64,000 bases of DNA from a plasmid. Within the stretch, counting starts at the first letter, position 1. Each line of letters starts with the position of its first letter. Positions 36,690 to 55,217 of the stretch are shown here, piece by piece. The DNA lies in the NCBI RefSeq assembly GCF_053078305.1, contig NZ_CP166875.1; one strand, 5' to 3'. The position numbers and the translations under genes were made by a program. The notes under the pieces were generated by a model, which saw only the letters and a program-made list of their open reading frames with translations, did not search any database and had not been told where the DNA came from.

Positions 36690-39410
36690 TTACATTCCAG
36701 GTGATGGTGGCTCCCATGTTTTCTCCTGCCGTAACGTATAATTATCATCATGGCTCTCCGATAAACGGGTCTGCTGTCTGATATATTCCCGGTAATACTG
36801 CTCACTGCGTTGACGGTGCAAATCCACGTCCGGACGAGTAATGGTGAAGTGTCCGTTTCCGGTTATTCCCGCTGCATTGTGCCAGGCCACCATTTCTGCA
36901 AACACATCATTAAACTGCTGGTATGAACCTTCCGGCTCAAAACCAAGCTTTCCGTTGCGGCTGAACAGAACTGGCGCAATTAAATCAAGCTTCTCTGCCA
37001 GTTCATTTCGGTCCGTGTGATGGTAGAACACAACCCGATCTCCGTAATCCGTACAGACATTTTTTCCTGTCCGCGTATCCCTGAAATGAACACTTCCATT
37101 TTTCTGAAGACGAGCTTCAAGTTTTGCAACATTATTAAAAAGTGGCGTTCCTCCGGGTTCGCAGAGTACGACACAACGATCAGCATTAGTTGTGCGTCTT
37201 TTATCCTTATTACGCGAGCGACGATCACGATAATCCCAGCCACGTAACTGCGATACTGCAGCCCTGTCTCCCTGAGCCGCCTGTTGTTCCACCCACTGCC
37301 GGTAGGACAAAGGATACCACTTACCCTCCGCAATCAGTGACAACCGCTCTTCCTTCACACTCTCCTTCAGCCTGATCAGCGCCTGCATACGCTGCACTTC
37401 CGCAATATGGTAATGCAGCTTACGCAATTGTGGATCCCGGAACTGCACACGGATATACGCCTTGCGCCGACGGCAGGCAGCATGAATTTCCCGTAACCGT
37501 TCTCCGTAACGTAAGTCGGGTTTACGCCAGTGCTCCTTCCATGCAAGATAACGCGCACGCAAATCTTCCCGCGCAGCTGCACGGGCTTCACGGCGCTCAC
37601 GACGAATCTCAGGATCGCGCCGGAAGCCTGGTTCCACTTCATCACTGGCAGCAAGTTCCGGATTGTAACGACATTCAGGCTTCACCCGTTCGAAAATATC
37701 TGCAGCCGCAATTTCAAATGGCCCGGCCTGAGGCTCGGCACGGGATAACGTCAAATCCGGGTGGATACTGCTGGCCTTCACCGGTGTCAGCTCATGATTA
37801 AACGCATCCACAATCACAAGACCATGATGCTGTTTCTGCAGCATAAGCCCTTTACGCGCAAACATCTCATGACATGCCTGCCAGCTGAAATCCCCGCCAG
37901 CTATCATCTCTTCAATCTGGCTCCTGCACTGAATAAGAGCGTATCCCCACAGACTTTCCTTATCGGAAAACAGTTCACGCTTTATAGCCCCCTGCGGACC
38001 TGTGCCCATCCTCATGCGATACCATTCGTAATCACTGACAGGCTGAGAGCCAATACTGTGTCCCCGGAATCGTTCTCCGGGAACGACCTGAGTAAAAATA
38101 TCCTTCGGTACAGGCTGCCATCCACCATCCAGATCCTGCATATAATCCAGCGTCATTAACGGCCACACACTGTCTGCACGTACTGGTGTCTGTTGTTTAT
38201 CAAATCCATCATGCAGTACCAGATGCCCGTGCTGAATCCCCATCCATAATCCCGCCTCTGCCAGAGTACGGTGTACAGCCAGGCAGCTTTTCAGTTCACC
38301 ATTGCGCGCCATTGCCGGTAAGCGTTCGGCAAAATGACGGCAGGCGTACTGTTTCAGACTCTCCGTTTCTGCCACTTTTTCCGGCCGGATATCAACGTTT
38401 ATGGCTTCCGGATCATAACGACCGGGTGTCCCCACCTGACTGAAAATATCTGTCGGTACAGGCTGATATTCCCCCAGTTTCCGCCCCAGTTTTTCAGCCG
38501 TCCATGACGGTCCGAACGAACTGAGTGCAACACCTTCCCGCGCTCTGTCCCAGCCATCCTTCACCACCAGTTCCCCTTCCTGCATCGTGATATACAGACC
38601 ATCGCTGGCCAGCCGTTTATGCAAAGATAACCAGTCCTGTGCAGGCTCTTCACGCAGCCCGGCAATCGACATCTGAGCAATATATTCCCTGAACGTCTGC
38701 TTTTTCCCGCGTCGCCAGGCATTACGGCGCTCACGTACCAGCGCTGTTTTGCGCACAATACGGTTGCCGGGTGCATGCACAAAGCAGCCATTATCCGGCG
38801 CGAATCCGTGCTTAAGTTCAAGTTCACGACATGCACGGCTGAGTTTTTCCTGGCTCCACGGAAGGCAATTGATATAGCCGGTTTCAGGGTGGACACGATT
38901 CACTGCAACATGTACATGCAGGTTATCCGTGTCTGTATGAACGGCTGCCACATACTGATGTTTTGACAGCTCAAGGGATTTCAGGGTGTGACGCACACAG
39001 TCAAAAAGCTGCTCAGAACGCGGACTTTCGTGCGCAGGCCAGGAGAGAATATAGTGAAAAACAGGATCTGTATCATCTTTGGAAAAATGAGCAAGGTCTG
39101 CTGCTTTCTGCATTTCTTCAGCCGCAGATTCAAGAGACAAACAGTTATGAAAGCAGGTCACACCATAGAAATTCACCCACTGACTGCCGTCTTTCATCAC
39201 ATCAATCAGGGAAACAAATTTTTCATTACGCAGACGTGTTGCATAATCAACAAGACGTCTGAAGCGATTCCGGTGCGGAACCTCACCTTTCACTTCCGTG
39301 TCTGGTCTGAGTTCATCTTCCGGCACATCATCCCGCACTGAGGTGTACGCAATCAGGTCTTCAAAAGAAGACTTTCCGTCGCGTCTTTTTTTCGGAATGA
39401 TGGCATTCAT
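36690..39410 (-). CDS. nikB: conjugative relaxase (NikB-like)
   Basis: 906 aa; N-terminal relaxase domain with histidine motif HVHVAVNRVH; adjacent to nikA-like gene and oriT-like site. Confidence 0.8.
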   Translation of the reverse strand: MNAIIPKKRRDGKSSFEDLIAYTSVRDDVPEDELRPDTEVKGEVPHRNRFRRLVDYATRLRNEKFVSLIDVMKDGSQWVNFYGVTCFHNCLSLESAAEEMQKAADLAHFSKDDTDPVFHYILSWPAHESPRSEQLFDCVRHTLKSLELSKHQYVAAVHTDTDNLHVHVAVNRVHPETGYINCLPWSQEKLSRACRELELKHGFAPDNGCFVHAPGNRIVRKTALVRERRNAWRRGKKQTFREYIAQMSIAGLREEPAQDWLSLHKRLASDGLYITMQEGELVVKDGWDRAREGVALSSFGPSWTAEKLGRKLGEYQPVPTDIFSQVGTPGRYDPEAINVDIRPEKVAETESLKQYACRHFAERLPAMARNGELKSCLAVHRTLAEAGLWMGIQHGHLVLHDGFDKQQTPVRADSVWPLMTLDYMQDLDGGWQPVPKDIFTQVVPGERFRGHSIGSQPVSDYEWYRMRMGTGPQGAIKRELFSDKESLWGYALIQCRSQIEEMIAGGDFSWQACHEMFARKGLMLQKQHHGLVIVDAFNHELTPVKASSIHPDLTLSRAEPQAGPFEIAAADIFERVKPECRYNPELAASDEVEPGFRRDPEIRRERREARAAAREDLRARYLAWKEHWRKPDLRYGERLREIHAACRRRKAYIRVQFRDPQLRKLHYHIAEVQRMQALIRLKESVKEERLSLIAEGKWYPLSYRQWVEQQAAQGDRAAVSQLRGWDYRDRRSRNKDKRRTTNADRCVVLCEPGGTPLFNNVAKLEARLQKNGSVHFRDTRTGKNVCTDYGDRVVFYHHTDRNELAEKLDLIAPVLFSRNGKLGFEPEGSYQQFNDVFAEMVAWHNAAGITGNGHFTITRPDVDLHRQRSEQYYREYIRQQTRLSESHDDNYTLRQEKTWEPPSPGM

Positions 39411-39421
39411 CAGCGATTATC

Positions 39422-39754
39422 TCAGCGTCCCATTAAATCTCTTCGCAGAGTATTAGCGAGTTCTGTAATAGCAACGAGAACCTCTGCATACTCTTTATCT
39501 CCCGTGCGTTTTCCTTCCACAAACAGATGCTTCTGCAGGCGACCAAGACGCATCAGCTCTTTCAAAAACTCTTCGTCAATGCGGGCATTTATCTGTTTTC
39601 CCAGCACAGTTTTTCTTATCAGAGTTGAAACTGTCAGTCCGTTTTTTTCTGCCTTTTCTCTAACAATCTCAGCCTCTTCTGGTGAAAAACGAACAGCAAT
39701 GAGGACATTCTTTTGCCGTTTCTCACTGCCACTTCGGGTTTTCTTCTCACTCAT
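39422..39754 (-). CDS. nikA: relaxosome accessory DNA-binding protein (NikA-like)
   Basis: 110 aa, basic; sits directly between relaxase gene and oriT-like inverted repeat. Confidence 0.65.
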   Translation of the reverse strand: MSEKKTRSGSEKRQKNVLIAVRFSPEEAEIVREKAEKNGLTVSTLIRKTVLGKQINARIDEEFLKELMRLGRLQKHLFVEGKRTGDKEYAEVLVAITELANTLRRDLMGR

Positions 39755-39794: not shown

Positions 39795-39855
39795 AGGTGG
39801 TAATCGTATAGCCGTGCGTGCGCGGTTATACGATTACACATCCTGTCCCGTTTTT
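39795..39855 (+). other. predicted origin of transfer (oriT): inverted repeat plus nick-region-like motif
   Basis: Inverted repeat GGTAATCGTATA (39799-39810) / TATACGATTAC (39827-39837) followed by ACATCCTGTCCCG, which resembles IncP/IncI-type nick regions. Confidence 0.5.
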
Positions 39856-39986
39856 CGGTCCATTATAGCCTGTTATTTTTGTGCATCATAGTCTTATGCA
39901 GACGGCAGAGGCAGGGCGCAGCCCTGCCAGGAGTCAGTTTTTGATGATAAAATCAGACTTCAACATGAAACGGAGAGAAAGTGCCA

Positions 39987-40322
39987 ATGGCTTCTAAAAA
40001 ATTTTACTCAGATGATGACATCCAGCTGGCAAAAGCTGCTTTATCAGAATTGCCGGACCTCACCGCTCAACGGAAAACATTGCGTGATTTTCTTGATGCC
40101 ATTCGTGATGACATTATTGTCCTGGTAAGGACAAAGGGTTATGCACTGGCAGATGTTCGTGACACGCTCAAAAATGCAGGGTATGAAGTAGGAGAGAAGG
40201 CACTTCGTGACATTATTCGGGAAGCAGAATCGAAAAAACCATCCCGCCGTTCTTCCTCTAAAACAGCACCTAAAAAGACAGATTCAGGCAGGAAAGATGG
40301 CATCGATATGAACAACAATTGA
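39987..40322 (+). CDS. hypothetical basic protein adjacent to oriT
   Basis: SD GGAGAG before ATG 39987; 111 aa; Lys/Arg/Ser-rich C-terminus. Confidence 0.4.
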   Translation: MASKKFYSDDDIQLAKAALSELPDLTAQRKTLRDFLDAIRDDIIVLVRTKGYALADVRDTLKNAGYEVGEKALRDIIREAESKKPSRRSSSKTAPKKTDSGRKDGIDMNNN

Positions 40323-40407
40323 TGTGACAATGTCACATCGTGTTCTGAGATTATGATGATTACAGAAAAAAAAGCCCCGGCATAAATACCAGGGCTTTTC
40401 TGTTTAA

Positions 40408-41259
40408 TCAGACTCGTGGCGGCAATGCACCAGGATAATGCCGTGCAATAATATCATTCAGTTTTTCAACAAGGTCAGAACGCTTAAAGACAATGTGTAC
40501 GGTCCCTTTCTGGTAGCCACGCACCGTAAAATATTCCCCTTCTAACAGCTTACCGACATTGTCGCCGTTCCCGAGAAATTCACCGTACTGCGCCCCGATG
40601 CTGCTCCGGAAGTCAGGAACGTTGCGCCCCTCCAGCAGATAAAACGGACGTACCAGGTCATCCAGTGCCTCCCGTCCGCTGCAGTCCAGCGTCACACGCC
40701 CGTTACTCCAGCGGTACAGCAGGTTTTCAATAATGATTTTCTTACCCAGACGGCAGGGATTATTGGTTCTGTAATCCCATGACAATTTCCGGTAGACATC
40801 AATCAGTCCCTGTTCAAATGTTTGCATCTTACTGGCATTCAGATAGCGAAAAGTTGCCAGTACATTGTCCAGGGTGATTTCAGGACAGGTGTCGCTCATC
40901 AGCTGGCTGTTCCACTCATCACGCTGGCATGAACTCATGAAGGTGTACATGCCAGTATCCGTCATCAGGCGATCCCAGATTTTCCGGTCGGCAAGACGGG
41001 TGATATTCTTTTTTGCTTCTTCCGGTTTATCCATGCATCGAACGGAGTCAGTCACGCAGTCTTCAAACCCGTAGAGAAAAATGTCACCGGAAGCATCGAG
41101 CAGAATCCTGCGCGCTGTCGCCAGGCATTCCATCGCCTGCATGAACAGTGCAATACCTTCGTTACGCTGCGCGATAATGCGGTCGATGGCCACAGACGGA
41201 ATAATATCTGTCGTGCCGGCAGTATTCAGGTCAGCAGTGGGTAAAGTCTGATTCATCAC
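40408..41259 (-). CDS. hypothetical leading-region protein (283 aa)
   Basis: First minus-strand ORF downstream of hairpin element A1. Confidence 0.5.
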   Translation of the reverse strand: MMNQTLPTADLNTAGTTDIIPSVAIDRIIAQRNEGIALFMQAMECLATARRILLDASGDIFLYGFEDCVTDSVRCMDKPEEAKKNITRLADRKIWDRLMTDTGMYTFMSSCQRDEWNSQLMSDTCPEITLDNVLATFRYLNASKMQTFEQGLIDVYRKLSWDYRTNNPCRLGKKIIIENLLYRWSNGRVTLDCSGREALDDLVRPFYLLEGRNVPDFRSSIGAQYGEFLGNGDNVGKLLEGEYFTVRGYQKGTVHIVFKRSDLVEKLNDIIARHYPGALPPRV

Positions 41260-41269
41260 ATTGTCTCCT

Positions 41270-41660
41270 CATCGTCACGACTGCCGGGTCAGCCAGGTCA
41301 TTTCCCGGAGGAGCGAAGCTCCTTCTGCCGTCCGGGTCTTCGGGGATTTCCCCGCAGTGGACCTTTCCGATGGGGGCCCGTTTACCGCCTCACGGGACAG
41401 CTGTCCGGGGGCGGACGCAAAATTTTTAGCCGGGTTCATGGCTAAAAATTTTGTGGCCGGTGCATCTCACCCTGGACAGATGGAACGGGAGGGGGTTACG
41501 TCTGCCCCCTGGAAAGTCCACAGCGGGAAACAGGCCGCAGGGGTGGCGGCAGGAGGGAAGACTGCTGCGCCATCAGGCGCAGTTTCCTCACACACCGTCA
41601 GGTGTGCAGGGAGCGCAGGTCACGGCGCGACTGAAGAAAAACGACGGCACAACAATGGCA
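41270..41660 (-). promoter_or_regulatory. repeated hairpin element, family A copy 1 (Frpo/ssi-like ssDNA promoter candidate)
   Basis: Shares blocks with 44690-45070 and 60050-60420; contains perfect hairpin AAAATTTTTAGCC / GGCTAAAAATTTT. Confidence 0.4.
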
Positions 41661-41734
41661 TGTGGTGGTCACTGGCACACCACTCCCGCACAGGTGAAAA
41701 CAGAGAAAACCGCACGACATTTACAACCAAAAAA

Positions 41735-41820
41735 AAGTGAAATTTCTTCACTTTTTCACGCTTATTTTTCGCGTTGATTTGGTGATTATGATGATAAAAT
41801 AAAGTGAAATTTTTTCACTT
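41735..41820 (+). promoter_or_regulatory. two identical palindromes (AAGTGAA-N5-TTCACTT) flanking a putative promoter
   Basis: Palindromes at 41735-41753 and 41802-41820, AT-rich spacer with TTGATT; just upstream of the HTH gene. Confidence 0.4.
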
Positions 41821-41835
41821 TTTCAAAGGTGTTTT

Positions 41836-42087
41836 ATGACCGGCTGGGAACTGCGAATCTGGCGAAAAAGCATGCTCTGGTCACGCGAAAAAGCGGCCAG
41901 AGAATTTGGCGTGACGCAGAGAACATGGCACGCCTGGGAAAATGCGGAACAGGTGGATGTCACCGTCTGGAGGACCACCCAGGCACTTTCAGTCCGTGAC
42001 CTGCTGCCTCACATGCAGGGGATGCGTAAGGCAGATATCATCAGGCGTCTGGAAAATGAACTGGGGGAAACGGCAGGGAATGTGTGA
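41836..42087 (+). CDS. small HTH DNA-binding regulator (Cro/XRE-like)
   Basis: 83 aa; segment AAREFGVTQRTWHAWEN typical of an HTH; preceded by twin palindromes. Confidence 0.5.
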   Translation: MTGWELRIWRKSMLWSREKAAREFGVTQRTWHAWENAEQVDVTVWRTTQALSVRDLLPHMQGMRKADIIRRLENELGETAGNV

Positions 42088-42117
42088 GCGTGATTCACAG
42101 CCTGGCTGAATGCCAGG

Positions 42118-42324
42118 CTACTGCTCATCAGGAAACAGCTTTTTCAGTTCTTCACCGGAAAGTCCCGTGACCTCCTGAATCCGTTCCGGCGGCCAGCCTA
42201 TATCCCGCAGCCGGCAGGCTATTTCCCGCGCCACTTCAAGAACCCCTTGTTTAAAACCTTCTTTAAAACCTTCTTTAAAACCCTCGTCGAAACCTTTCTG
42301 TATAAGACGTTCTGCAATCGTCAT
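42118..42324 (-). CDS. stand-alone small protein resembling an Rpn C-terminal domain (RpnS-like)
   Basis: SD AGGAG before ATG; resembles the C-terminus of the adjacent Rpn (TIAERL..KG...TGLS.EEL.K); contains KEGF x3 tandem repeat. Confidence 0.45.
   Translation of the reverse strand: MTIAERLIQKGFDEGFKEGFKEGFKQGVLEVAREIACRLRDIGWPPERIQEVTGLSGEELKKLFPDEQ
42249..42287 (-). repeat. 12-bp tandem repeat x3 encoding (GFKE)n
   Basis: ttctttaaaacc repeated three times on the + strand. Confidence 0.8.
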
Positions 42325-42386
42325 GCTGTTTGCTCTGCTCCTGCTGGCAAAAAAGCCCGGGATTTTGCCGGGCTTTGTGGTTCTCA

Positions 42387-43301
42387 TCAGTGAGTGATTT
42401 TCTTCAGTTCGTCATCGGAAAGTCCGGTAGCCTGCTTAATCTGCTCCGGCGTCATCCCCATTTTCTGAAGCTGGCACGCAATAGCCAGGGCTTTTTCAAG
42501 CGCTCCTTCCATGCGTCCTTCCATCCTGCCTTCCTGGCGACCTTTTTGCTCAAGACGTTCTGCGATAGTCATCAGTTTATCCTCATGCTGCGGCAGACGC
42601 TCAGCCAGCGCCCGCATAAATTCCGGTGATACAGAGTCCCCTGCGTTAACGATGTAATGAATCAGAACACGCACCTGTTCATCTGAAATTTCCACCATGA
42701 CCTGCGGGAGTTTGTCCAGCAGCTCCATCATGTCACGATGGCGGATATGCTTCATCAGCAGCGTCAGTGCGGCCATCCGGCGATGGTTCATGATTTCATT
42801 GTCATCAACGACAGTGATATCAACCAGCGGAAACGGCTTTGTGTATATTTTAGCCGCAAGAGCCGGATTCTCAAAACAGCCCAGCCAGTTCATGCTGTAC
42901 GGGTACGGGCTGCGCTCACCGTGATAGAACAGCACCGGAATCACCAGTGGCAACGTTTTGTGCTGCTCCAGATGTCTCTGCATCGCCGCCACACTGTAAC
43001 GTAACATGCGAAAAGGCATGTACAGATTTTCGGTGCTCTGGTGCTCGATGAGCGTATAAACATAGCCGTCTTCACCCCCGGTGGTTTTCACGCTCCAGAG
43101 GATATCGCTGGCGTACTGATGCAGGTCCGGCTCTACAAAGGTGGCGGGTTCCAGCTTCAGCGTGGACAGGTCGCACAACTGCCGGTACTCCGCAGGAAGA
43201 TGCAGTTCCAGAAAATCTCTGGCGACGTCGGGATTCGCCAGGAACGACCGGAACGCGGCATCATGCGGCGTGGGCGTTGTGGTGTTTTTCTTCTTACTCA
43301 C
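42387..43301 (-). CDS. Rpn-family recombination-promoting nuclease (YhgA-like PD-(D/E)xK)
   Basis: 304 aa; N-terminal region typical of YhgA/Rpn proteins; C-terminal repeat domain QEGRMEGRMEG ... TGLSDDELKK. Confidence 0.65.
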   Translation of the reverse strand: MSKKKNTTTPTPHDAAFRSFLANPDVARDFLELHLPAEYRQLCDLSTLKLEPATFVEPDLHQYASDILWSVKTTGGEDGYVYTLIEHQSTENLYMPFRMLRYSVAAMQRHLEQHKTLPLVIPVLFYHGERSPYPYSMNWLGCFENPALAAKIYTKPFPLVDITVVDDNEIMNHRRMAALTLLMKHIRHRDMMELLDKLPQVMVEISDEQVRVLIHYIVNAGDSVSPEFMRALAERLPQHEDKLMTIAERLEQKGRQEGRMEGRMEGALEKALAIACQLQKMGMTPEQIKQATGLSDDELKKITH

Positions 43302-43687
43302 GGTTCCTCCATCAAATCAGCAGCATCGCAGCAATCATCGCCCAAATCCCCACAACCGAGAGGACAGCAATTGCGTTCAAAGCCATGACAACAATAGCCG
43401 CGTTCTGAGTCACGGCGTATTTCTTCAGCAATCTCTTCTGCGGAAAGGTAATCAAACTCCTCACGGGCCAGTTCCAGGACCAGTAGATGTTGTTCTGTCG
43501 GCAATGTGGCCACAAAATTATCAATAGCAGCACTCAAACGTCGCTGATATAGCTCATAAACAAGACCACAACGGGGCATTAGTTCTTCGGATAATAGTTC
43601 CAGTTTTGAGCGAATTCTGTCAGCGTTGAAAGTGACTTCATCAAAAGACATATGAAAAGCTTTGTCAGTATCAAAACAAGACTTCAT
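43298..43687 (-). CDS. hypothetical acidic protein with Cys-rich C-terminus
   Basis: SD GGAGG before ATG 43687; C-terminus CCHGFERNCCPLGCGDLGDDCCD. Confidence 0.4.
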   Translation of the reverse strand: MKSCFDTDKAFHMSFDEVTFNADRIRSKLELLSEELMPRCGLVYELYQRRLSAAIDNFVATLPTEQHLLVLELAREEFDYLSAEEIAEEIRRDSERGYCCHGFERNCCPLGCGDLGDDCCDAADLMEEP

Positions 43688-43863
43688 TGTTATCTCCAGC
43701 CCTCCCGGGCCCTGAATGAAAGAGAATCTGTTTCCCTTTTCTGTTTTTTGTGGAGACACCATGCAACACAGACGTCGTGATGTTTTTCATCTTGCTCACG
43801 GTTCCTCCTGGTAAAGTACCTGAACACATCCTGCCACCTGCACAGGCAGACGGCAGGGGTTAA

Positions 43864-44130
43864 TCAGTGACAGACCCGTTCAATTTCAAGCGCGCGGAGC
43901 AGGTGGCCCCATTCGCTGACTTTCATGGCGGGGATACGTACCCGCTTCTGCTCACTGCAGCGTCTGGCGATATGACCGCCCATCGCCAGGACGTCCGGGT
44001 TAATCTCATCCGGTGCCAGTTCCTGGCGTCTGAAGCGGGTATGGCGGTGCAGGGGTTTATTCTCCCGCAGGCACTCTTCACGCAGACGCTTTACATACTC
44101 GGCGGTTGCGAAGATAATTGATGGTCTCAT
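43864..44130 (-). CDS. hypothetical basic protein (88 aa)
   Basis: SD GGAG before ATG 44130. Confidence 0.4.
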   Translation of the reverse strand: MRPSIIFATAEYVKRLREECLRENKPLHRHTRFRRQELAPDEINPDVLAMGGHIARRCSEQKRVRIPAMKVSEWGHLLRALEIERVCH

Positions 44131-44222
44131 GGCATAATCTCCATAGTTAGTGAATGAGATGCCGGACTTCCGTACGGGGAAGCGCCGGCGGAGAGAGGCA
44201 GGGTTTATCGCCCTGCTTTTTT

Positions 44223-44657
44223 TCATTCCGGACAGCGACGCAGTGCCAGCGCGAGCGCTTTCATCTTCCAGCCTTCCGGCGTGCGGTACATCACCTTCCA
44301 GTAGCCGTCGATGAACACATAATGGAAGCGCACCTCTTCAGTGCTTTCCGTGGCGATGGCCTCCCTGAAAGAACGGTACTCACGCGCCTCACTGTCCATC
44401 CGGAAACCACTGTCACGTCCGTAATAAGCCGTCACACCGTCCACCGGGTTCTGAAGCGTATGCCCGGCGGGTTTGTCGCAACGGGGACCGAGGCAACGGA
44501 TATCACCGTGTTCAACCAGGGCTTCGGCCTGCTGACCGGTGGCATAGTGGGTATGCAGGATGCGACCGTTCCAGGTCGGCTCACCGTGCAGGTGGCAGTA
44601 AACGGTACGGAACACCCCGTCGCGGCAAAAAACGGAAATCGTGCTGCTGACTGTCAT
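44223..44657 (-). CDS. hypothetical leading-region protein (144 aa)
   Basis: SD AAGGAGA before ATG 44657; directly downstream of hairpin element A2. Confidence 0.45.
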   Translation of the reverse strand: MTVSSTISVFCRDGVFRTVYCHLHGEPTWNGRILHTHYATGQQAEALVEHGDIRCLGPRCDKPAGHTLQNPVDGVTAYYGRDSGFRMDSEAREYRSFREAIATESTEEVRFHYVFIDGYWKVMYRTPEGWKMKALALALRRCPE

Positions 44658-44689
44658 GAAAACGTCTCCTTCTGCTGAATCAGGTCGCC

Positions 44690-45070
44690 GGGCCGACCGA
44701 TTGCTCCCCCGGAGGGGCGAAAGCCCCTTCTGCCGTCCACTTCTTCGGGGTTTCTCCCCGCAGTGGACCTTTCCGATGGGGCAGCGACAGCCACGGCACG
44801 GGGCAGTTGTCCGGGGGCAGACGCAAAAGTTTTTGACGCTTGCGGCAAAAAGTTTTGTGGCTGGTACATCTCCCCCCTGGACGGCTGACACGTGTTGTGG
44901 CCGCTTCAGCCCCCGGAAAGTCCACAGCGGGAAACAGGCCGCAGGGGTGGCGGCGGAAGGGCAGACAACTGCGCCATCAGGCGCAGTTTCCTTACACACC
45001 GTCAGGTGTGCAGGGAGCGCAGGTCACGGCGCGACAGAGGCGGCGCGACCGGAACGGTCGCTGCAAGCCT
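44690..45070 (-). promoter_or_regulatory. repeated hairpin element, family A copy 2
   Basis: Same ordered blocks as copy 1; hairpin CAAAAGTTTTTG / CAAAAAGTTTTG with TTGACG in the stem. Confidence 0.4.
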
Positions 45071-45388
45071 GGTTTTTCAGACATCGGACCGTAGCGGCAG
45101 CCCGAAACCGCGCCAGCGGGTTCGGCGGAGACTGGCGGGTGCGCCAGCAGCTGCCTGTCGGAGTCGGGCCTGACGACCGGATGCCGCCAGGCAGCCGGGA
45201 GCCGAAGGTGTCCCCGCCTCCGGAAATCAGAACAACAGAAACGACATAACAGAAAAATGCCTCACACCATGACGGGCAGGAAGGGCAGCGCCGCAGGCGC
45301 GGCCCTCCTGCATTTCAGGCAGGCGTAAGCCTGCCAGGGTTTTCCGGCGGCCTGGCAGGCCATACCCCCGCCGGAGCGGGGGAGTAAA

Positions 45389-45889
45389 TCACCGACGGAA
45401 CACATGACCGTCAATAAAGGTGAAGGAGTCCAGGAATAAATCCCGCGCATACGCCTCATAGTCAAAATAGAGCGCCACCGTCTCCGGCACGTCAGCCAGC
45501 AGGCCGGTATCACTGGCGAACTCAACCGCAAAAGCCTCCTCACTGTCAGCCTCGCCCCACCAGGCATCGCGGAAGCTGTCAAAATCCGTCTCACCGGTAT
45601 CATCCACCCAGAGACGATAAGCCTCTTCGCAGCCTTCATCCCGTGCCCGGCGGAAGCCTTCAACCCAGGCCCAGTTGATATGACATTCAGAGGCCATATT
45701 CCCCGGGAATCCCTCATAATCCTGAAACATCAGTTCAGGATCGGCTTCATCCTGGTGAAGAGCACGGCAGGCGGCGAAAAAGTCGCGCTCATCATCAAAC
45801 GTGGTCAGGTCAAACCAGCGTCCGGCGATGCTTCCACAGTTGTATTTGTGCCAGGTTCCAACGTATACAGCAGGTGCAACAACAGACAT
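45389..45889 (-). CDS. ardA: antirestriction protein ArdA (DNA mimic)
   Basis: 166-aa highly acidic protein starting MSVVAPAVYVGTWHKYNCGSIAGRWFDLTTFDDE, recognised as ArdA; SD GGAGGA. Confidence 0.85.
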   Translation of the reverse strand: MSVVAPAVYVGTWHKYNCGSIAGRWFDLTTFDDERDFFAACRALHQDEADPELMFQDYEGFPGNMASECHINWAWVEGFRRARDEGCEEAYRLWVDDTGETDFDSFRDAWWGEADSEEAFAVEFASDTGLLADVPETVALYFDYEAYARDLFLDSFTFIDGHVFRR

Positions 45890-46302
45890 TCCCGAATCCT
45901 CCATAGTCACATGTTCTGCGACACCGGGCGGTGCCGTGCCTCCATCTTTGCCGGGCCTGCAGGGATGCAAGGGCGCAAGGAAAGCCGCAGCCCGACGCGC
46001 ACGGCTGACGGGAGTTGGAGGGTGAGACCGCGAAATCTGAGCGGGTGAACGACCGGAAAATCACGGCAGACGGGAAGGAGGGACCGGGTGACCGCAGCGG
46101 TTCATCTTACCTTGCAACCCGCCCGCAGAAGCCCGGCTACGATGGAGGCACGGCACAGCCCGCACACGACGCTGAGGCCACATAACTGAAAACCCACAAG
46201 GCCATGCCCCGCATGGCCGGGTAAAGCGGAGCCTGCGGCGACATCCTTTTGCTCTTTCCGGGGACCGGCTGGAAAAGGCGGAGATTTTCCCCGCCAGCGT
46301 CA

Positions 46303-47073
46303 TCATTTCCGGATTTTCGCCAGTGCATCCGCCATGCTGCGGATTTCAGTCCGGGCTTCCAGGACCACCTCCCGCAGAATATCCCGGTCAAACCAGCGAC
46401 GGGACGGTTCATCAGGTATACGCAGCACATCGCAGGCCAGCCCACTGGACAGGATATGCTCCACACACTCACTGACCAGATACATTTCCACCGACGAAAA
46501 ACGAGCGCCCCGGTTCAGGATGGCATCGAGCACCACGGGCAGGTTTTCGTCGTCTTCATCGAGCCAGCAGGGGTGATCGCTTTCCTTCACAACCAGACGA
46601 AAGCGGCGCGTCTGGCGGGTCAGCAACGTCTGACCGGTGGTAGTCAACGCCGCACGGATACGCCGCGCATCTTCTGCCACCCGGCAACTGACACTGCATA
46701 CTGCATCGCGCACCGCATCAAGAACTGCCCTGATTTCGTCTTCGGTCAGCCATTCTCCGGCATACGGGAAAGACACCTGCGTTCCGTCTGCCGGAAGTAC
46801 CGGCAGCGACTGCCACTGACTGCCGGACAGAACAAGTTCCGCCCCGGTTCCGGTCAGTTTCTGAATGGCAGAGGCCAGGAGCGGCGGCAGTACGCCGCCG
46901 TGACGGTTGATAAGTAACGTCGCCAGCCGGGGCGCATCCAGCCGCACGTAAATGCTGATCCAGCCCGGATACTTCGGGTTCCGCTGGTCAACATCCGTTT
47001 CTTCCGGCCAGCCCTGCGCCAGCAACAGGTTGCTGGCGTGGCGATAAATCAGTGCATTCAGCGTTTCATTCAT
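46303..47073 (-). CDS. hypothetical leading-region protein (256 aa)
   Basis: SD GGGAG before ATG; same strand as ardA. Confidence 0.5.
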
Positions 47074-47117
47074 AATTCATGAACTCCCTGTATCGCCGCC
47101 CGAAGGCGGCGATAACA

Positions 47118-47552
47118 TCAGTCGTTTTCGTGTGTGTTGTTTTTCAGCAGGGTGCGGGCCTGATTAACCACCTCCTGACGGCGGGTGACGCATTCCGGGA
47201 CGGCGAGGCCATGATCCCGGGCGGCCCATTCACGTTTCCACAATGCCTGCTCAGCGGTCTGAATCAGGGACGCCAGCAGTTCAGCAGGGACGGTCACCTG
47301 GCGGTTTTCGCTCACGTTATTGATGATCTCCATCACCGCAGCGGAAGAAATACCGGACTCAATCCGCTGTTCTTCCGGGATGTCCTCCAGGCGTGCCAGG
47401 ACGGTCCTGATTTCATGACCGGTCAGAGAAATTTCCATACCGTCAGCCAGTGCCTGAATCTCTTCCGGGGACCAGACAACCAGCATCAGCGGCGTGTTCT
47501 CCGTATACTGCGCTGCCAGCTCACGGCAGAGCGTTTCGCATGTTCCGTACAT
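47118..47552 (-). CDS. hypothetical leading-region protein (144 aa)
   Basis: SD AAGGAGA before ATG 47552. Confidence 0.45.
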   Translation of the reverse strand: MYGTCETLCRELAAQYTENTPLMLVVWSPEEIQALADGMEISLTGHEIRTVLARLEDIPEEQRIESGISSAAVMEIINNVSENRQVTVPAELLASLIQTAEQALWKREWAARDHGLAVPECVTRRQEVVNQARTLLKNNTHEND

Positions 47553-47565
47553 TCTCGTCTCCTTC

Positions 47566-47787
47566 TCAATCTTTAAAGCACGCATCCAGTTCCAGAATTT
47601 CGGTATATGCCTCCATCAGGAGGCGGTTTGCGCGAAACAACGTCTGACGCACCAGACGTTCCGGCAGGGTGTCAGCATTAAAGCTGTACCGCCGCTCCAT
47701 CTCATTCATGGTTGTACGCAGGTCGCACATGGCATTGGCCACATCCGCCACTTCGGCGCGAAGTTTTTCGTGTCCGGCATAGTTCAT
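47566..47787 (-). CDS. hypothetical small protein (73 aa)
   Basis: SD GGAGG before ATG; start overlaps the methyltransferase stop. Confidence 0.4.
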   Translation of the reverse strand: MNYAGHEKLRAEVADVANAMCDLRTTMNEMERRYSFNADTLPERLVRQTLFRANRLLMEAYTEILELDACFKD

Positions 47788-48471
47788 TTACGCAGCCTCC
47801 GGCATAAACCAGTCATCATTCGCGGCCCCCTGCTGCATGGCCCGTTGTACGGCGGCAAGGCGTTGCTGCCCGGCACGGTGATACTGCTCAAGCAGCTCGA
47901 TACCGATATACCGGCGTCCGGACTGGAAGGCGGCCACGCAGGTTGAGCCGCTGCCTGCAAACGGGTCCAGCACAATTGCGTTCGGGTGTGTGAAGCTCTC
48001 AATCAGCGGTTGCAGGCTGGTAACGGGCTTTTCCGTCGGGTGATGACGATTGCCTGAATATTTCCAGCCCAGCACGTCCGGCAGCGGGTTTTGTGGCAGA
48101 CGTGGACGGCCTTTTGCCAGGATGTAGGCACATTCGTGGCGATAGCCCACATATGCGGCCTTCGATGTGTAGTTTTTGGTGAAGACCAGGTGACCAACAA
48201 CGCTGAATCCCGCATTTTTCCAGGCAGACATAAAACGATCGACGCGATTCCAGCCATAGAAGCTCACCATTAACGCGTCTTTTTTGAGTACGCGGTACAT
48301 CTCATTACAGGCCGGTTGCAGCCATTCATCGGTTTTATCGCCGGCAATGGTACGCCCCTGACGGTCACGAAAACCGACGAGGTACGGCGGGTCGGTGAGG
48401 ATGAAATCAATGGCGTTATCAGGGATACGGGCCATAACATCGATGCAGTTACCGAGGACAAAACGGGACAT
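47788..48471 (-). CDS. orphan DNA methyltransferase (N6-adenine/N4-cytosine class, DPPY motif)
   Basis: Motif IV FILTDPPYL; C-terminal AdoMet-binding segment VLDPFAGSGSTCVAA; SD GAAGGAG; no adjacent restriction enzyme gene. Confidence 0.7.
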   Translation of the reverse strand: MSRFVLGNCIDVMARIPDNAIDFILTDPPYLVGFRDRQGRTIAGDKTDEWLQPACNEMYRVLKKDALMVSFYGWNRVDRFMSAWKNAGFSVVGHLVFTKNYTSKAAYVGYRHECAYILAKGRPRLPQNPLPDVLGWKYSGNRHHPTEKPVTSLQPLIESFTHPNAIVLDPFAGSGSTCVAAFQSGRRYIGIELLEQYHRAGQQRLAAVQRAMQQGAANDDWFMPEAA

Positions 48472-48485
48472 ACCAAACTCCTTCT

Positions 48486-48830
48486 CTTACAGAGGGCACC
48501 GGGAGGGCCCCCCTGTGGTGCCCGTTCCCCGCTGCCTGTGGGCTGTTCACCGCGTCCGGTAACGGGTCAGGCCGACCGTGGAATACCGCAGCCGTCGTCT
48601 TTTTGACGGCAAGGTTATGCCGCGAAAGCGGCTTGAAGGGCGTTCATCAGAAAAGGGCGACGGGCTGGCGTACACTGTCACCGGTGCCAGCCGGGAGCGG
48701 TAAAAGCGCCCGTCCCGTGCCCGGCCGGACGCGGGACACTGACCACAGGCAGCGTTTATGCCGCGCCGCGTCAGCCGGCGCAGTAAAAAGAGGAGCACGG
48801 CGACATCCTTTGTCGGAAAAGAAACGGGCG
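48486..48830 (-). promoter_or_regulatory. long imperfect-hairpin element, family B copy 1 (Frpo/ssi-like ssDNA promoter candidate)
   Basis: Near-identical to 49800-50115; distal arms complementary (CGCTGCCTGTGG ... CCACAGGCAGCG); contains TTGACGG. Confidence 0.45.
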
Positions 48831-48855
48831 GTTGCCCGCCCGTCTCCGTCATACT

Positions 48856-49782
48856 TCATCCGCCATAATGCGCCACCTTGTCGACTATCCACGCAGGTCC
48901 GGTGACTTCCGGCAGCTCATCGTCATCTGTCGGGGAAGACCATTCCAGTTCCCCCCACAGCACATCAACGAGCTCTCCGCGCTCATACAACTGCCAGCCA
49001 CAGAAATTGCAGCCCTGTTCGGCGTACCAGTGCTCCAGCGTGCAGCCGAAACGGCGGCTTAATTCTGCAACAACGTCGCTTTCCGGCTGACACCACGGCG
49101 TGTCGAAATCTACCTGAATGAAGTTTTCCCCCTGACTGCTGATATTCAGGTCATACCCACAAGGCCACTTCACGCCATACCGTTCTGTATACCAGTGATA
49201 TGCAGAAGGAACACCGTTCAGAACACCGCCGTTAAAGCCATTCACTTCAATATCCAGGCGGGTCGGCAAAACCGTCAGCAGGTCAAACGGCATGGTTTTT
49301 TCCGGCAGTACGTTGTCACACAGACGGTTCCACCACACCGATACATCCTCGTTACCCCAGATGTCACACCAGTCACCTCTTTTTGCGGTGAAATGCACAG
49401 TGATAGTTTCCCTGACATCATCCGGTAACTCTTCCCAGCGACGCTGTCCAGTACCGCTCTGCAGCCAGAGTTCATGCAGCATCAGGCAGTTTTGCTCATC
49501 CAGCAGTACACCGTTCTGCAGGTGTGTCAGCCAGCGGGTGAACGCGATATTTTCCGGTGATACAGCACCACGTCCGGCAGCCGTCACTCCGGGGCACTGC
49601 TCAGAGCGGATATTTTCAGTGATCTGCAGAAGTCCGGCACTTCCGGCCAGAAACAGCTGAATACCTTCATTTGTGGCGCGGCGATAAAACGGTGTGACTG
49701 CACCGCTGGCCAGTCGTTTAATCTCAGCAATCTGTGCCGGTTCACCAGAAAAATACATACGATTCGAGCACCAGTTTGGCAT
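48856..49782 (-). CDS. hypothetical leading-region protein (308 aa), Trp/Cys-rich
   Basis: SD GAGGAG before ATG 49782; directly downstream of element B2. Confidence 0.5.
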   Translation of the reverse strand: MPNWCSNRMYFSGEPAQIAEIKRLASGAVTPFYRRATNEGIQLFLAGSAGLLQITENIRSEQCPGVTAAGRGAVSPENIAFTRWLTHLQNGVLLDEQNCLMLHELWLQSGTGQRRWEELPDDVRETITVHFTAKRGDWCDIWGNEDVSVWWNRLCDNVLPEKTMPFDLLTVLPTRLDIEVNGFNGGVLNGVPSAYHWYTERYGVKWPCGYDLNISSQGENFIQVDFDTPWCQPESDVVAELSRRFGCTLEHWYAEQGCNFCGWQLYERGELVDVLWGELEWSSPTDDDELPEVTGPAWIVDKVAHYGG

Positions 49783-49799
49783 GGGAATTCTCCTCACAG

Positions 49800-50115
49800 G
49801 AGCACCGGGAGGGAGCCCCTGTGGCGCCCGTTCCCCGCTGCCTGTGGGCTGTTCACCGCGTCCGGTAACGGGTCAGGCCGACCGTGGAATACCGCAGCCG
49901 TCGTCTGTTTGACGGCAAGGTTATGCCGCGAAAGCGGCTTGAAGGGCGTTCATCAGAAAAGGGCGACGGGCTGGCGTACACTATCACCGACGCCAGCCGG
50001 GAGCGGTAAAAGCGCCCGTCCCGTGCCCGCCGGACGCGGGACACTGACCACAGGCAGCGTTTATGCCGCGCCGCGTCAGCCGGCGCAGTAAAAAGAGGAG
50101 CACGGCGACATCCTT
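49800..50115 (-). promoter_or_regulatory. long imperfect-hairpin element, family B copy 2
   Basis: About 97% identical by eye to copy 1 over roughly 310 bp. Confidence 0.45.
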
Positions 50116-50159
50116 TTCCCCTGAACATCCGTCAGCCTTTCTCTGCGGCAAGATCAATC

Positions 50160-50385
50160 CTTAACAGAAAAAAAACCAACAAGCACCCACATAAAAAACA
50201 AAAAACCCAAGCAACACCCACACAAACAAAAAAAACACCCAGAAAACACCCAAAGACAAACAACAATAAAGTAATGAAACCCATAAAACACCCAAAAAAA
50301 GACAAAAAAGATTAAATAGCACTTGAACGCCACCAAAAAAATACTATTATGGGTATAGACACCCAAACGACACCCAAAAGAGGAT
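50160..50385 (+). repeat. parC-like centromere: A/C-rich iterons (ACACCCA and variants)
   Basis: At least 8 direct copies of (A)ACACCCA in a C/A-rich tract directly upstream of the ParM-like gene. Confidence 0.45.
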
Positions 50386-50388
50386 TTT

Positions 50389-51360
50389 ATGATTAAGATA
50401 TTCTGTGATGATGGTTCTACAGCGGTTAAGCTGGCATGGTTTGAAAACGGGGAACTAAAAACCCTCATTAGTCACAATTCTTTCAAGGAAGGCTGGAACA
50501 CATCAGGATTTGGCAGTGAGAAAACTTATAATTACTTAGTCGATGGAGAGAAATATGCGTTTGATACACATAACCCATCAGCAATAGTCACAACCAATAT
50601 TGAGTTTCAATATAGTGTAGAAAATCGTCTCGCTGTACATCACGCACTACTACAAACAGGAATGGAGCCTGGGGATGTAGAGCTTTGGGTTACATTACCT
50701 GTATCTGAATATTTCACTACAGATATGCAAGAGAATTCGGATAACATAAGAAAAAAAATAGAAAACCTGAAAAAAGAAATTACACTGAATAAAGGCAGCG
50801 TATTTTCAATCAAGAAAGTTCATGTATTACCCGAGTCTCTACCTGCAGCGTTGACCTCTCTCGAAGAGGATAAAGTCAGTGATCTTGAAACGTCCCTTGT
50901 CGTCGATCTTGGTGGAACAACTCTTGATTGTGGCGCTATAGCTGGCAGATATAAAAATGTAACACAAGTATCCGGAGAACCTGGTCTTGGCGTAACTCTG
51001 GTAACAACGGCGACAATGAATGCCCTGAAACAGGCAGGAACGCATACCAGCTACTATATTGCAGATCAACTGGTTAGAAACAGAAATGCTGATGATTTAT
51101 TCGAAATTGTTGTTAATGACAGCAGTAAAATAGATGATGTGAAATCAGTAATTGAAAACAGTATTACAAGACTTTCAGACAGAGTTATAAATCATTTACA
51201 CTCGTACAAAGGGATAAATCGTATATACATGACTGGTGGTGGTGCGGAACTAATCTACCCTGCAATAAAAAAAGCATTCCCCTTATTAAAGGATAAAGTA
51301 AAAATTTTACCAGATGCGCAATTAGCCCTTGTTATTTCTATTGCTGAAATAAATCGATAA
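50389..51360 (+). CDS. parM: actin-like plasmid segregation ATPase (ParM/StbA family)
   Basis: N-terminal IFCDDGSTAVKLAW and phosphate-2 motif VVDLGGTTLD; overall resemblance to R1 ParM; 323 aa. Confidence 0.75.
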   Translation: MIKIFCDDGSTAVKLAWFENGELKTLISHNSFKEGWNTSGFGSEKTYNYLVDGEKYAFDTHNPSAIVTTNIEFQYSVENRLAVHHALLQTGMEPGDVELWVTLPVSEYFTTDMQENSDNIRKKIENLKKEITLNKGSVFSIKKVHVLPESLPAALTSLEEDKVSDLETSLVVDLGGTTLDCGAIAGRYKNVTQVSGEPGLGVTLVTTATMNALKQAGTHTSYYIADQLVRNRNADDLFEIVVNDSSKIDDVKSVIENSITRLSDRVINHLHSYKGINRIYMTGGGAELIYPAIKKAFPLLKDKVKILPDAQLALVISIAEINR

Positions 51361-52033: not shown

Positions 52034-53560
52034 TCACTTTTTTCTCCGTCGTCTGCCACGCGCTCTGCTGCCTGTATTTTTTTCCCGGGATGCCGGCTCA
52101 CTCTGCAATGCCGGGGGAGGTACCTGTTTCAGGAGCTGGCGCAGCACACTGTTGAGGATCAGCGTCCGCCGAGCCCGTGTGGCAGCCACATAGAGCAGGT
52201 TGAGTTCATCCCGCAGTTTCTCTTCAAATTCCTGCACATTGTCCGTTCCCGGCTGCTCAAGCTCCTGAAAATCCTCATGCAGCCTCACTGTGTCCCATTC
52301 CAGGCCTTTGGCCCTGTGCACCGTGGTGACAGTCACGGCAGCAGCCTTTTCGTCACGGACCTCATATTTTCGCAGCGTGGCCACATGTTCCGGCAGCGGC
52401 GAAAACTTCTGAATGATAGCCACTGACTGCAGCATTTCCGCGTCCCGGCTTGCCTTTGCCGTCGCCTCATAGTCAGAGAACGACTCCCACGCAGCAAAGC
52501 GAGCCGGCTCCCGGATTTTTTCCGTCATTCCCACAGAAAACCACCACAGATCCAGCAGGCGGGCAACCGGCCAGGCATTCATACCGTTGATCCAGTATGT
52601 TTTCTGCTTCCTCCGGGCCGCGTGAAGCGCAGCACCAATCACGCCCATCACTGTCCGGCACAGCACCGCACAGTGAGGCATATTCCTCTCGGGTTTCAGC
52701 AACAGACGGTCATCACCGCCAAGCCCACAGACTTTTTTCGTCTCCCCGTCCAGAGCCAGCACAGCATTTGCCACATCTGCCACACAGGGACCGAAACGGA
52801 AACTGCCGGTAAGCCACAGCCTGTCTGCCGTGGCCAGAGAGGGGGTATTCAGCGCATCCACGGCACCCCGGAAGCGATAAATCTGCTGATGTGGATCACC
52901 CACCATCACCAGCGTTCCACGGTGGCGCAGGACCAGGTCGGAGATCACCGGACTGGCGTCCTGGGCTTCATCAAACAGGATTTCATCGTACTTTGCGGAC
53001 AGATCCGGCTGCGAAAGCTGGTACAGCTTCAGATACAGATCATGAACGACCGGAAAGTCATCACTGCGGTCGCACATTCTTTGCCAGAGACGCACGGCCA
53101 GCGGCAGCACCTCTGCTGCGCGCAGTGGCGGCCTGGCACGGACATGCACCTCAGACAACGTCGTGTCCGCACTGTTCATGAAAGCCTGTAGGGTTTCCCT
53201 GACGGCCGCAGCCAACGGCCACTGGCGCAGTGAAAGCGCCCCGGCGATATCAGTAATGCCCAGGGAAGGCACGAGACGGTGGGAGTAATGTCGTCCAAAT
53301 TCCGGCCACGCCAGCTGATGTGCAGTCCGGCAACAGACATTCACCGGGAAGCGTGCCTGAGCCTCCTCCCGGACAGACCGGTTGAATGCGATATAGAGCA
53401 TACGGCGTTCAGGCCGGGCCTGCGCATAAGCCACCAGTGTGGCTGTTTTGCCGGTGCCGGCAAAAGCCCTGACAACCAGTCGCTGTCCCTGCCAGTTAAT
53501 GACAGCCTGTTGTTCAGCGGTCGGAGCGTGACGGATTTTCCTGACCGGGTGCTGAGTCAT
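52034..53560 (-). CDS. UvrD/Rep-like superfamily-1 DNA helicase (about 508 aa)
   Basis: Walker A AGTGKTAT, motif II FDEAQD, C-terminal VTTVHRAKGLEWDTV; ATG overlaps the upstream stop (ATGA). Confidence 0.7.
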   Translation of the reverse strand: MTQHPVRKIRHAPTAEQQAVINWQGQRLVVRAFAGTGKTATLVAYAQARPERRMLYIAFNRSVREEAQARFPVNVCCRTAHQLAWPEFGRHYSHRLVPSLGITDIAGALSLRQWPLAAAVRETLQAFMNSADTTLSEVHVRARPPLRAAEVLPLAVRLWQRMCDRSDDFPVVHDLYLKLYQLSQPDLSAKYDEILFDEAQDASPVISDLVLRHRGTLVMVGDPHQQIYRFRGAVDALNTPSLATADRLWLTGSFRFGPCVADVANAVLALDGETKKVCGLGGDDRLLLKPERNMPHCAVLCRTVMGVIGAALHAARRKQKTYWINGMNAWPVARLLDLWWFSVGMTEKIREPARFAAWESFSDYEATAKASRDAEMLQSVAIIQKFSPLPEHVATLRKYEVRDEKAAAVTVTTVHRAKGLEWDTVRLHEDFQELEQPGTDNVQEFEEKLRDELNLLYVAATRARRTLILNSVLRQLLKQVPPPALQSEPASREKNTGSRARGRRRRKK

Positions 53561-54635: not shown

Positions 54636-55217
54636 TTATTTATAAAACGTTGCAATTTTAGCATCATTTTTTATTGTTCTTTTTAACCTGAAGTACGTCG
54701 ATCGAGAGATACCTGTTTTTTCTGTCACACTGCCCAGAGATTCTCCCTGTGATATAAGCTCCAACGCTGTAGGCGTTCGTGGATGCTTCTTCCTGCCAAA
54801 TTTTACGCCTGCGGCAAGTGCCGCTATTCTTCCGTCGTTTGTCCGCTCCAGAATACGCTCACGTTCCGCTTCAGCTACAGCAGCAAGGATTTGGATAACC
54901 ATTTTGCCCATTGTCCCTTCTGTACTGAGACCGTTCTCCAGGAACCGGATGGCGATCCCCTTTTTGTAACAGCTATCAACCACACGAATCATGTCAGCAG
55001 TGTTACGCCCCAGTCGGTCCATTTTTGTACAGATGATTACGTCGTCTTTCTCTGCACGGGCCAACAACCGCTGTAGTCCTTCCCGTTCATCAGTTGCGCC
55101 AGTCATCATATCCGTAAAAATACGATCTTCCCGTACCCCGGCATTTTTTAGCTCCGAGATTTGATGTGTTAGCTTCTGATGACTGGTTGATACCCGTGCA
55201 TACCCCAATAACGCCAT
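54636..55217 (-). CDS. tnpR: serine recombinase (resolvase TnpR)
   Basis: N-terminal LLGYARVSTSHQ catalytic motif; C-terminal HTH. Confidence 0.8.
   Translation of the reverse strand: MALLGYARVSTSHQKLTHQISELKNAGVREDRIFTDMMTGATDEREGLQRLLARAEKDDVIICTKMDRLGRNTADMIRVVDSCYKKGIAIRFLENGLSTEGTMGKMVIQILAAVAEAERERILERTNDGRIAALAAGVKFGRKKHPRTPTALELISQGESLGSVTEKTGISRSTYFRLKRTIKNDAKIATFYK

Follow-up and report, generated by a model that had tools for sequence, protein, structure and literature searches.

Hairpin-headed genes of uncharacterised function in the predicted leading region of an IncI-complex plasmid

It is the leading region that determines whether a resistance plasmid gets through the first minutes inside a new host. 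The locus described here raises the question of what the genes to the right of one origin of transfer (oriT) would do in those minutes, and whether any of them encodes a function not yet described. It lies on a plasmid (NCBI RefSeq contig NZ_CP166875.1, assembly GCF_053078305.1), of which we analysed one stretch of 64,000 nucleotides (nt), the window. An earlier note on this DNA had marked out an island beginning at position 39981, in which ardA, an orphan methyltransferase gene and an Rpn nuclease gene are interleaved with at least eight uncharacterised open reading frames (ORFs), and had proposed these ORFs as the most plausible place for an undescribed anti-defence function. Judged by its sequence, the segment is very probably the leading region of a conjugative plasmid of the IncI complex (IncI1/K/Z-type, MOBP, NikAB), with hairpin-driven early transcription units. 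It is also a rediscovery: its genes, promoters and families have already been published.

The origin of transfer and the promoter-like hairpins

The direction of transfer follows from the nick site. Genes for a nikB-type relaxase of 906 amino acids (aa) (36690-39410) and for nikA (39422-39754) lie on the minus strand, and a motif search located CATCCTGT on the plus strand at 39839-39846, directly past the inverted repeat 39800-39837 and between nikA and the island. The nick form is ACATCCTG|T, with the predicted nick between 39845 and 39846, and corresponds to YATCCTG|Y, which we take to be the IncI1/IncP-type nick region of the R64 and RP4 oriT. The octamer YATCCTGY is over-represented in the window (21 copies, compared with 8.5 +/- 2.4 and at most 16 in shuffles), and only the copy at 39839-39846 adjoins the oriT inverted repeat. 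With the nick there on the plus strand, the 5' end would lead rightward, so that the DNA from 39.8 to 50.1 kilobases (kb) would enter first and nikAB last. The geometry proposed in the earlier note, with the plus strand entering first and the island to the right of oriT, is thus supported by the strand of the nick motif and by the position of nikA and nikB on one side of oriT and of the island on the other. Of the database plasmids, those nearest to it are assigned to the types IncK2/Z or IncI-gamma/K1, MOBP and MPF_I.

Five elements of ~330-350 nt stand 4-53 nt upstream of start codons in the island, in which a repeat analysis found three repeat sets. Wen et al. (PMC12672017) distinguish class 1 hairpins (ssi/Frpo), class 2 hairpins (those of ardA and klcA) and class 3 hairpins (that of M.EcoGIX) in the IncI1 plasmid pESBL-EA11 (NC_018659.1, from E. 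coli O104:H4; pESBL below). The window elements match ColIb-P9 Frpo2 and Frpo3, whose sequences were taken from the supplement of PMC11541004, and the class 2 and class 3 elements of pESBL, which upholds the suggestion that the hairpins before these genes resemble single-stranded DNA (ssDNA) promoters. As single-stranded plus-strand DNA they are much more stably folded than shuffles (z scores in Table 1). The class 2 element is also 78% identical to a published Frpo' candidate; the first class 3 element lies 9 nt upstream of the methyltransferase start, and the second is 95.8% identical to the element upstream of M.EcoGIX in pESBL. In that plasmid six leading-region operons are strongly induced 15 min after mating, and rapid amplification of 5' cDNA ends (5'RACE) places starts in all six hairpins (PMC12672017). 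A scan of the island for duplex sigma-70 promoters returned 7 sites, compared with 5.8 expected, and thus no enrichment; none of the sites lies directly upstream of a transcription unit.

A separate observation concerns the 14-mer CGGCGACATCCTTT, present at 46236-46249, 48798-48811 and 50103-50116, where it stands at the right, promoter-distal end of three hairpins, the class 2 element and the two class 3 elements. Apart from it, the two classes are unrelated in sequence; published Frpo' candidates of an insect-gut element contain it too.

The hairpins may also have shaped the gene content of the island. Between ardA and ychA, relatives including pESBL carry ~6.6 kb (Hp15, psiA, psiB, parB/herB, DUF905, ssb, a class 1 hairpin, Hp13, Hp12 and klcA) that the window is without; ssb, psiB and psiA are absent between 39981 and 50135. 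In a three-way alignment the single class 2 hairpin of the window is a hybrid, with the variants of the ardA copy on its left and those of the klcA copy on its right, the switch falling at ~46105-46117, which argues that homologous recombination between the two class 2 repeats removed the block. At least 26 PLSDB plasmids, from E. coli, Shigella and Salmonella, share this ardA-ychA junction, as counted among the 5000 best-scoring records. At the far end of the island, pESBL has before Hp8 a different, unrelated long hairpin (z -5.8; pESBL locus L005:278-671), whereas the window has there a second class 3 copy, which within the pESBL stretch examined matches only the element upstream of M.EcoGIX. 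This difference suggests that promoter hairpins are exchangeable modules.

Known and uncharacterised genes of the island

Twelve of the 14 island genes lie on the minus strand, with the transferred strand as their template. The eight ORFs listed as uncharacterised (those of YdiA, Hp18, Hp17, Hp16, YchA, Hp10, Hp9 and Hp8) are all present on that strand, with ATG starts and without internal stops, so the described co-orientation with the plus strand as template stands; so does their interleaving with ardA, the methyltransferase gene and rpn, which Pfam and NCBIfam identify. Other parts of the earlier note need amending. Its left boundary, 39981, belongs to a plus-strand ORF outside the minus-strand set, one of two plus-strand genes in the interval together with the helix-turn-helix (HTH) gene of Hp21. 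Of the eight ORFs called uncharacterised, three carry the Pfam domains DUF4942, DUF1380 and DUF1281, domains of unknown function (DUFs). The Shine-Dalgarno (SD) core was defined as a match to AGGAGG spaced 3-12 nt from the start codon: it measures at least 4 nt in 11 of the 12 minus-strand genes, compared with 12% of all ATG/GTG codons in the region, and at least 5 nt in 8 of the 12, compared with 3% of the background.

Measured against the pESBL orthologues, the ratio of nonsynonymous to synonymous substitution rates (dN/dS) lies at 0.06-0.46 in every case with enough differences for a judgement, which argues that the eight ORFs are real genes under purifying selection; the value of 0.9 for Hp17 comes from 4 differences only. 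Two further minus-strand ORFs, 48547-48852 and 49853-50128, lie wholly inside the class 3 hairpins, encode products with an isoelectric point (pI) of ~12 and have no SD site. Although RefSeq relatives list them as hypothetical proteins, they are probably artefacts of annotation.

The island holds two genes of recognised anti-restriction type. ArdA proteins are DNA mimics that block Type I restriction, and the ArdA of the window has the acidic composition of such a mimic (net charge -24, pI 4.1). The methyltransferase carries its catalytic TDPPY at residues 26-30 and falls within the M.EcoGIX/PRK13699 family. M.EcoGIX methylates adenines of single-stranded DNA non-specifically and shields pESBL from restriction in the recipient; it is dispensable for transfer to E. 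coli K-12 and protects against restriction in other recipients (PMC4288162).

The third named gene, rpn, leads elsewhere. Within it, Met244 (42572), behind a GAGGA, is the start of an intragenic RpnS (42387-42572); the gene also carries EGRM 4-aa repeats. Hp20 is a free-standing second rpnS copy with three copies of the 4-aa repeat EGFK; read from an upstream ATG at 42387, a start without an SD site, it would have 89 aa. Database alleles of Hp20 have 60-76 aa and differ just by 1-5 repeat units (EGFK/ESFK/QGFK). RpnL and RpnS form a toxin-antitoxin system, with neutralisation demonstrated for RpnA, RpnB and RpnP2, a plasmid copy of Rpn protects against T-even phages, and some loci have a separate downstream rpnS that descends from the rpn gene before it (PMC10327210). 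Since the family has phage-defence activity, the Rpn part of the island would not be anti-defence. By analogy with these relatives, we take Rpn/Hp20 to be a toxin-antitoxin, defence or addiction module, in an arrangement that is already known. Because its relatives are stand-alone proteins and downstream rpnS duplicates have been described, Hp20 would be a second antitoxin copy of the cognate type. We rejected a role as decoy antitoxin against a host Rpn: the closest relatives of Hp20 are all small stand-alone proteins, not the C-termini of other Rpn nucleases.

Among the uncharacterised ORFs, YdiA gave the clearest relationship. A tblastn search returned 65 phage relatives, most of them annotated as DNA methylases, and YdiA aligns over its whole length with a module that the phage proteins carry fused to a gamma-class adenine methyltransferase domain. 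In these fusions the YdiA-like module sits before or after the catalytic domain, and the Pfam architectures are DUF4942+MTS and Dam/MTS+DUF4942. YdiA itself was rejected as a methyltransferase: Pfam finds only DUF4942 in it, and the FYPTP...EPSAGxG...NPPF/Y block lies wholly outside the aligned part. By this alignment, YdiA is the non-catalytic module of phage N6-adenine methyltransferases, predicted to be without the catalytic domain. It would most likely act as an accessory or DNA-recognition module, and on the incoming strand it could work by recruiting, or by mimicking, a methyltransferase or a restriction subunit. A genome-contig search with YdiA returned one locus, and its structural model (predicted local distance difference test, pLDDT, 77) had no informative fold match.

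YchA is predicted to share one transcription unit with M.EcoGIX behind a class 3 hairpin, and nearly all recovered members of its family come from Enterobacterales; fold searches with its predicted structure found no informative structural relative. The C-terminal domain of Hp8 is of the Api92 type, with a ferredoxin-like fold, and the protein matches PDB 2IJR (Api92, a structural-genomics protein) at E=1e-46. Pfam has nothing for Hp9, Hp16, Hp17, Hp18 or YchA, and Hp18 also gave no NCBIfam, PHROG or PDB match. For the ORFs without a Pfam family, weak PADLOC matches at E ~1e-3 were put down to chance. Word-indexed homologue searches returned near-identical plasmid copies only.

Databases widely give Hp16 the label "post-segregation killing protein PndC", and the window has a sok/pnd-type locus at 27136-27292. 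We rejected the label for Hp16, as Rfam places sok only at 27136-27292 and 61013-61184, and neither a hok gene nor sok lies near 44223-44657.

Table 1. Features of the island and of the F-type fragment in the window. pESBL names are those of the transposon insertion sequencing (TnSeq) table of PMC4288162; z, fold z score against shuffles.
Feature	Position	Strand	Name in pESBL	Evidence and remarks
oriT core	39800..39846	+		inverted repeat 39800-39837, then nick-region motif CATCCTG|T 39839-39846
"MobC"-labelled ORF, 113 aa	39981..40322	+		basic; 99% identical to pESBL gene labelled "MobC" in RefSeq
YdiA (DUF4942), 283 aa	40408..41259	-	YdiA	Pfam DUF4942; predicted first T-strand (transferred-strand)-templated gene to enter
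Class 1 hairpin (ssi/Frpo)	41306..41633	+		96% identical to ColIb-P9 Frpo3; -102.7 kcal/mol, z -10.8; upstream of ydiA
Hp21, HTH_31 (XRE-type) regulator, 83 aa	41836..42087	+	Hp21 (HTH)	opposite strand to the unit genes
Hp20, free-standing second rpnS copy, 68 aa	42118..42324	-	Hp20	56% identical to Rpn residues 244-302
Rpn (RpnL), PD-(D/E)XK nuclease, 304 aa	42387..43301	-	Hp19 (Rpn)	Pfam Transposase_31 PF04754 E=1.2e-77
Hp18, 129 aa	43298..43687	-	Hp18	acidic (pI 4.4, net -16); Cys-rich C-terminus
Hp17, 88 aa	43864..44130	-	Hp17	basic
Hp16, 144 aa	44223..44657	-	Hp16	phrog_1987 E=5e-21; first gene behind second class 1 hairpin
Class 1 hairpin (ssi/Frpo)	44710..45037	+		87% identical to ColIb-P9 Frpo2; -114.1 kcal/mol, z -10.5; heads Hp16-Hp17-Hp18-rpn-Hp20
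ArdA anti-restriction protein, 166 aa	45389..45889	-	ArdA	Pfam ArdA PF07275 E=2.2e-29; 98% identical to pESBL ArdA
Class 2 hairpin	45909..46248	+		88% identical to pESBL ardA-upstream element; z -3.1
YchA, 256 aa	46303..47073	-	Hp11/YchA	no Pfam match; confident AlphaFold2 (AF2) fold
Hp10 (DUF1380), 144 aa	47118..47552	-	Hp10	Pfam E=3.4e-52; acidic (net -11)
Hp9, 73 aa	47566..47787	-	Hp9	no Pfam match
M.EcoGIX-type orphan adenine methyltransferase, 227 aa	47788..48471	-	M.EcoGIX	NCBIfam NF010253 500.6 bits (cutoff 244); 94% identical to pESBL M.EcoGIX
Class 3 hairpin	48480..48830	+		96.9% over 351 nt to pESBL M.EcoGIX-upstream element; z -4.5; heads methyltransferase-Hp9-Hp10-YchA
Hp8 (DUF1281), 308 aa	48856..49782	-	Hp8	Pfam DUF1281 E=1.6e-46 and DUF1281_C; acidic (net -22); 94% identical to pESBL
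Class 3 hairpin, second copy	49786..50135	+		97-99% identical to first copy; z -4.9; 4 nt upstream of DUF1281 gene
ssiD/Frpo	59988-60336			95% identical
sok	61013-61184			
psiA	61290-62009			
psiB	62006-62443			
ParB-like gene	62495-63970			

Early expression and the function of the eight ORFs

Taken by homology, the locus would work as follows. NikB would nick the plus strand at ~39845/39846, and the recipient would receive that strand from its 5' end. While the strand is still single, the five inverted-repeat elements on it would form long hairpins as mimics of duplex promoters, and host RNA polymerase would transcribe leftward on the plus strand, ahead of complementary-strand synthesis. Five units are predicted: one class 1 hairpin would drive ydiA and the other Hp16-Hp17-Hp18-rpn-Hp20, the class 2 hairpin would drive ardA, and the two class 3 hairpins would drive M.EcoGIX-Hp9-Hp10(DUF1380)-ychA and Hp8 (DUF1281). 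The early products would include ArdA, M.EcoGIX and the Rpn toxin with two RpnS antitoxin copies. Zygotic (transient) induction in the recipient is established for the orthologous regions of pESBL and ColIb-P9 (PMC12672017). We infer that some products of the eight ORFs most likely serve a transient early function after entry, in anti-defence or in establishment.

Several points weigh against this proposal. That the five hairpins fire as promoters in this plasmid is argued by analogy, the support coming from the orthologous systems; no convincing -35/-10 boxes were found in the hairpin arms, either by eye or in the duplex promoter scan, and the class 2 element folds with a z of just -3.1. The earlier note had named profile searches and structure prediction as routes to function, and neither led there: NCBIfam, PADLOC and PDB gave nothing beyond DUFs, the fold of YchA is confident yet unmatched, and the fold searches with YdiA and YchA were uninformative for function. 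In the published pESBL TnSeq table (PMC4288162) the ORFs score 1.00/0.00/0.00, like M.EcoGIX and thus like genes reported as non-essential both for maintenance and for transfer to a K-12 recipient, the meaning of the columns being read from the comparison with M.EcoGIX.

The genes could also be early establishment factors unrelated to immunity, acting in host reprogramming, ssDNA handling or offsetting the cost of acquisition, as with YfjB/HerB. HerB, a ParB-like protein of leading regions, is induced on entry and acts by rewiring host transcription, not by blocking defence (PMC13370423); in line with such a role, no ORF matches any anti-defence or defence profile, and in the pESBL TnSeq the ORFs score like genes dispensable for transfer (PMC4288162). 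Against it, the ORFs share units with the proven anti-restriction genes M.EcoGIX and ArdA, the DUF1281 protein, Hp18 and the DUF1380 protein (net -22, -16 and -11) are acidic like DNA-mimic inhibitors, and YdiA is related to a phage methyltransferase module; we regard this explanation as somewhat unlikely. Less probable still is a selfish or cargo role for some of the ORFs: as toxin-antitoxin, addiction or defence modules they would serve the plasmid once it is established, or its host, and would owe their placement in the leading region to history. Rpn with its two RpnS copies would be just such a module, a toxin-antitoxin with phage-defence activity, toxin-antitoxin genes are common in leading regions (PMC11541004), and the region is recombinationally plastic, as the 6.6-kb deletion and the swapped hairpins indicate. 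The strict co-orientation on the transferred strand and the separate ssDNA promoter of each unit favour instead selection for early expression, and the gene order is conserved over IncI, IncK/Z and IncF plasmids.

It is hardly credible that some of the listed ORFs are chance frames in GC-rich DNA. This explanation suits the unlisted neighbours inside the class 3 hairpins, and Hp17 with its few differences lends it a little weight; the SD sites, the dN/dS values, the Pfam and PHROG families and the confident AF2 fold of YchA all speak for genes. A transient early function in anti-defence or establishment remains the reading we prefer for some of the ORFs. That at least one of the conserved ORFs encodes a mechanistically new protein of either kind is a more tentative possibility, for which YchA and YdiA are the best candidates.

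Neighbouring features and comparison with known leading regions

Beyond the island, directly upstream of parM (50389-51360), A-rich direct repeats occupy 50166-50384 (ACCCA...ACACCCA, at least 7 copies at ~10-42-nt spacing) and look like a parC-type centromere. A minus-strand gene for a UvrD-family helicase (52034-53620), matched by PADLOC GajB profiles with E down to 3e-24, adjoins a ProQ/FinO gene; host UvrD has been reported to resolve the roadblock that an ssDNA promoter poses to complementary-strand synthesis (bioRxiv 10.64898/2026.01.09.698686). Next come the resolvase and transposase of a Tn3-family transposon (54636-58412), then IS66 TnpA/TnpB remnants (58722-59746). Past them, at 59988-64000, lies a fragment of an F-type leading region oriented as the IncI island (Table 1). 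Because the fragment is co-oriented, the strand whose IncI leading region has lost psiAB carries these genes at another place.

The window adds no new kind of element, its genes and promoters being already published and under study. Its uncharacterised genes are among the most widespread on Enterobacterales plasmids, and their functions would matter. Three leads stand out: YchA with its apparent orphan fold, YdiA as a methyltransferase-associated module minus the enzyme domain, and the repeated ssDNA-promoter hairpins as recombination sites that delete or reshuffle modules, here ssb, psiB, psiA and klcA.

The Rpn module resembles the rpnE-ypaA type (Zhong et al. 2023) in its PD-(D/E)XK Rpn, the internal RpnS start, the 4-aa repeat helix and the downstream rpnS paralogue of varying repeat number. 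It differs in that the window copy lies in a leading-region operon, behind a predicted ssDNA promoter, and in that its downstream copy is 56% identical to the intragenic one.

The island as a whole is like the anti-defence islands of Samuel et al. (Nature 2024) in its genes templated by the transferred strand, its Frpo-like promoters, ArdA together with an orphan methyltransferase, and its uncharacterised families; unlike those islands, the shortened island of the window has no recognisable anti-CRISPR or SOS inhibitor. Anti-defence genes are enriched in leading regions and oriented for the transferred strand, and the largest families enriched there include DUF4942/YdiA, DUF1380/YcgB, DUF1281/YubB, YchA/YffA, "PndC" and RpnB, most of them marked uncharacterised (PMC11541004). 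With the F plasmid the island shares the principle (Frpo1/Frpo2 = ssp) and several families (YfeA = M.EcoGIX, YchA/YubG, DUF1281/YubB and DUF1380/YcgB), and Wen et al. (PMC12672017) report that F has kept hairpins of classes 2 and 3, whereas the relaxase and oriT are of type MOBF in F and MOBP here.

ColIb-P9 and R64 are closer. Two of their ssi/Frpo elements are 87-96% identical to those of the window, ~1.5 kb and ~4.9 kb from the nick, and a third, with its ssb-psiB operon, is absent from the window segment. According to PMC11541004, which cites Bates 1999 and Althorpe 1999, ardA of these plasmids is expressed from the transferred strand. The most detailed counterpart is pESBL, whose leading region has published TnSeq (PMC4288162) and early-conjugation RNA sequencing (RNA-seq) with 5'RACE (PMC12672017). 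It has the same gene order in mirror image, running from oriT through ydiA, the HTH gene, Hp20, rpn, Hp18, Hp17, Hp16 and ardA and, past the block lost here, through ychA, Hp10, Hp9 and M.EcoGIX to Hp8, with proteins 87-100% identical and with class 1, 2 and 3 hairpins at matching positions. The two part past Hp8, where the window has parM/stbB and pESBL impCAB. The same genes are found in pESBL, R64, ColIb-P9 and thousands of plasmids, and their order is kept from IncI to IncK/Z and IncF.

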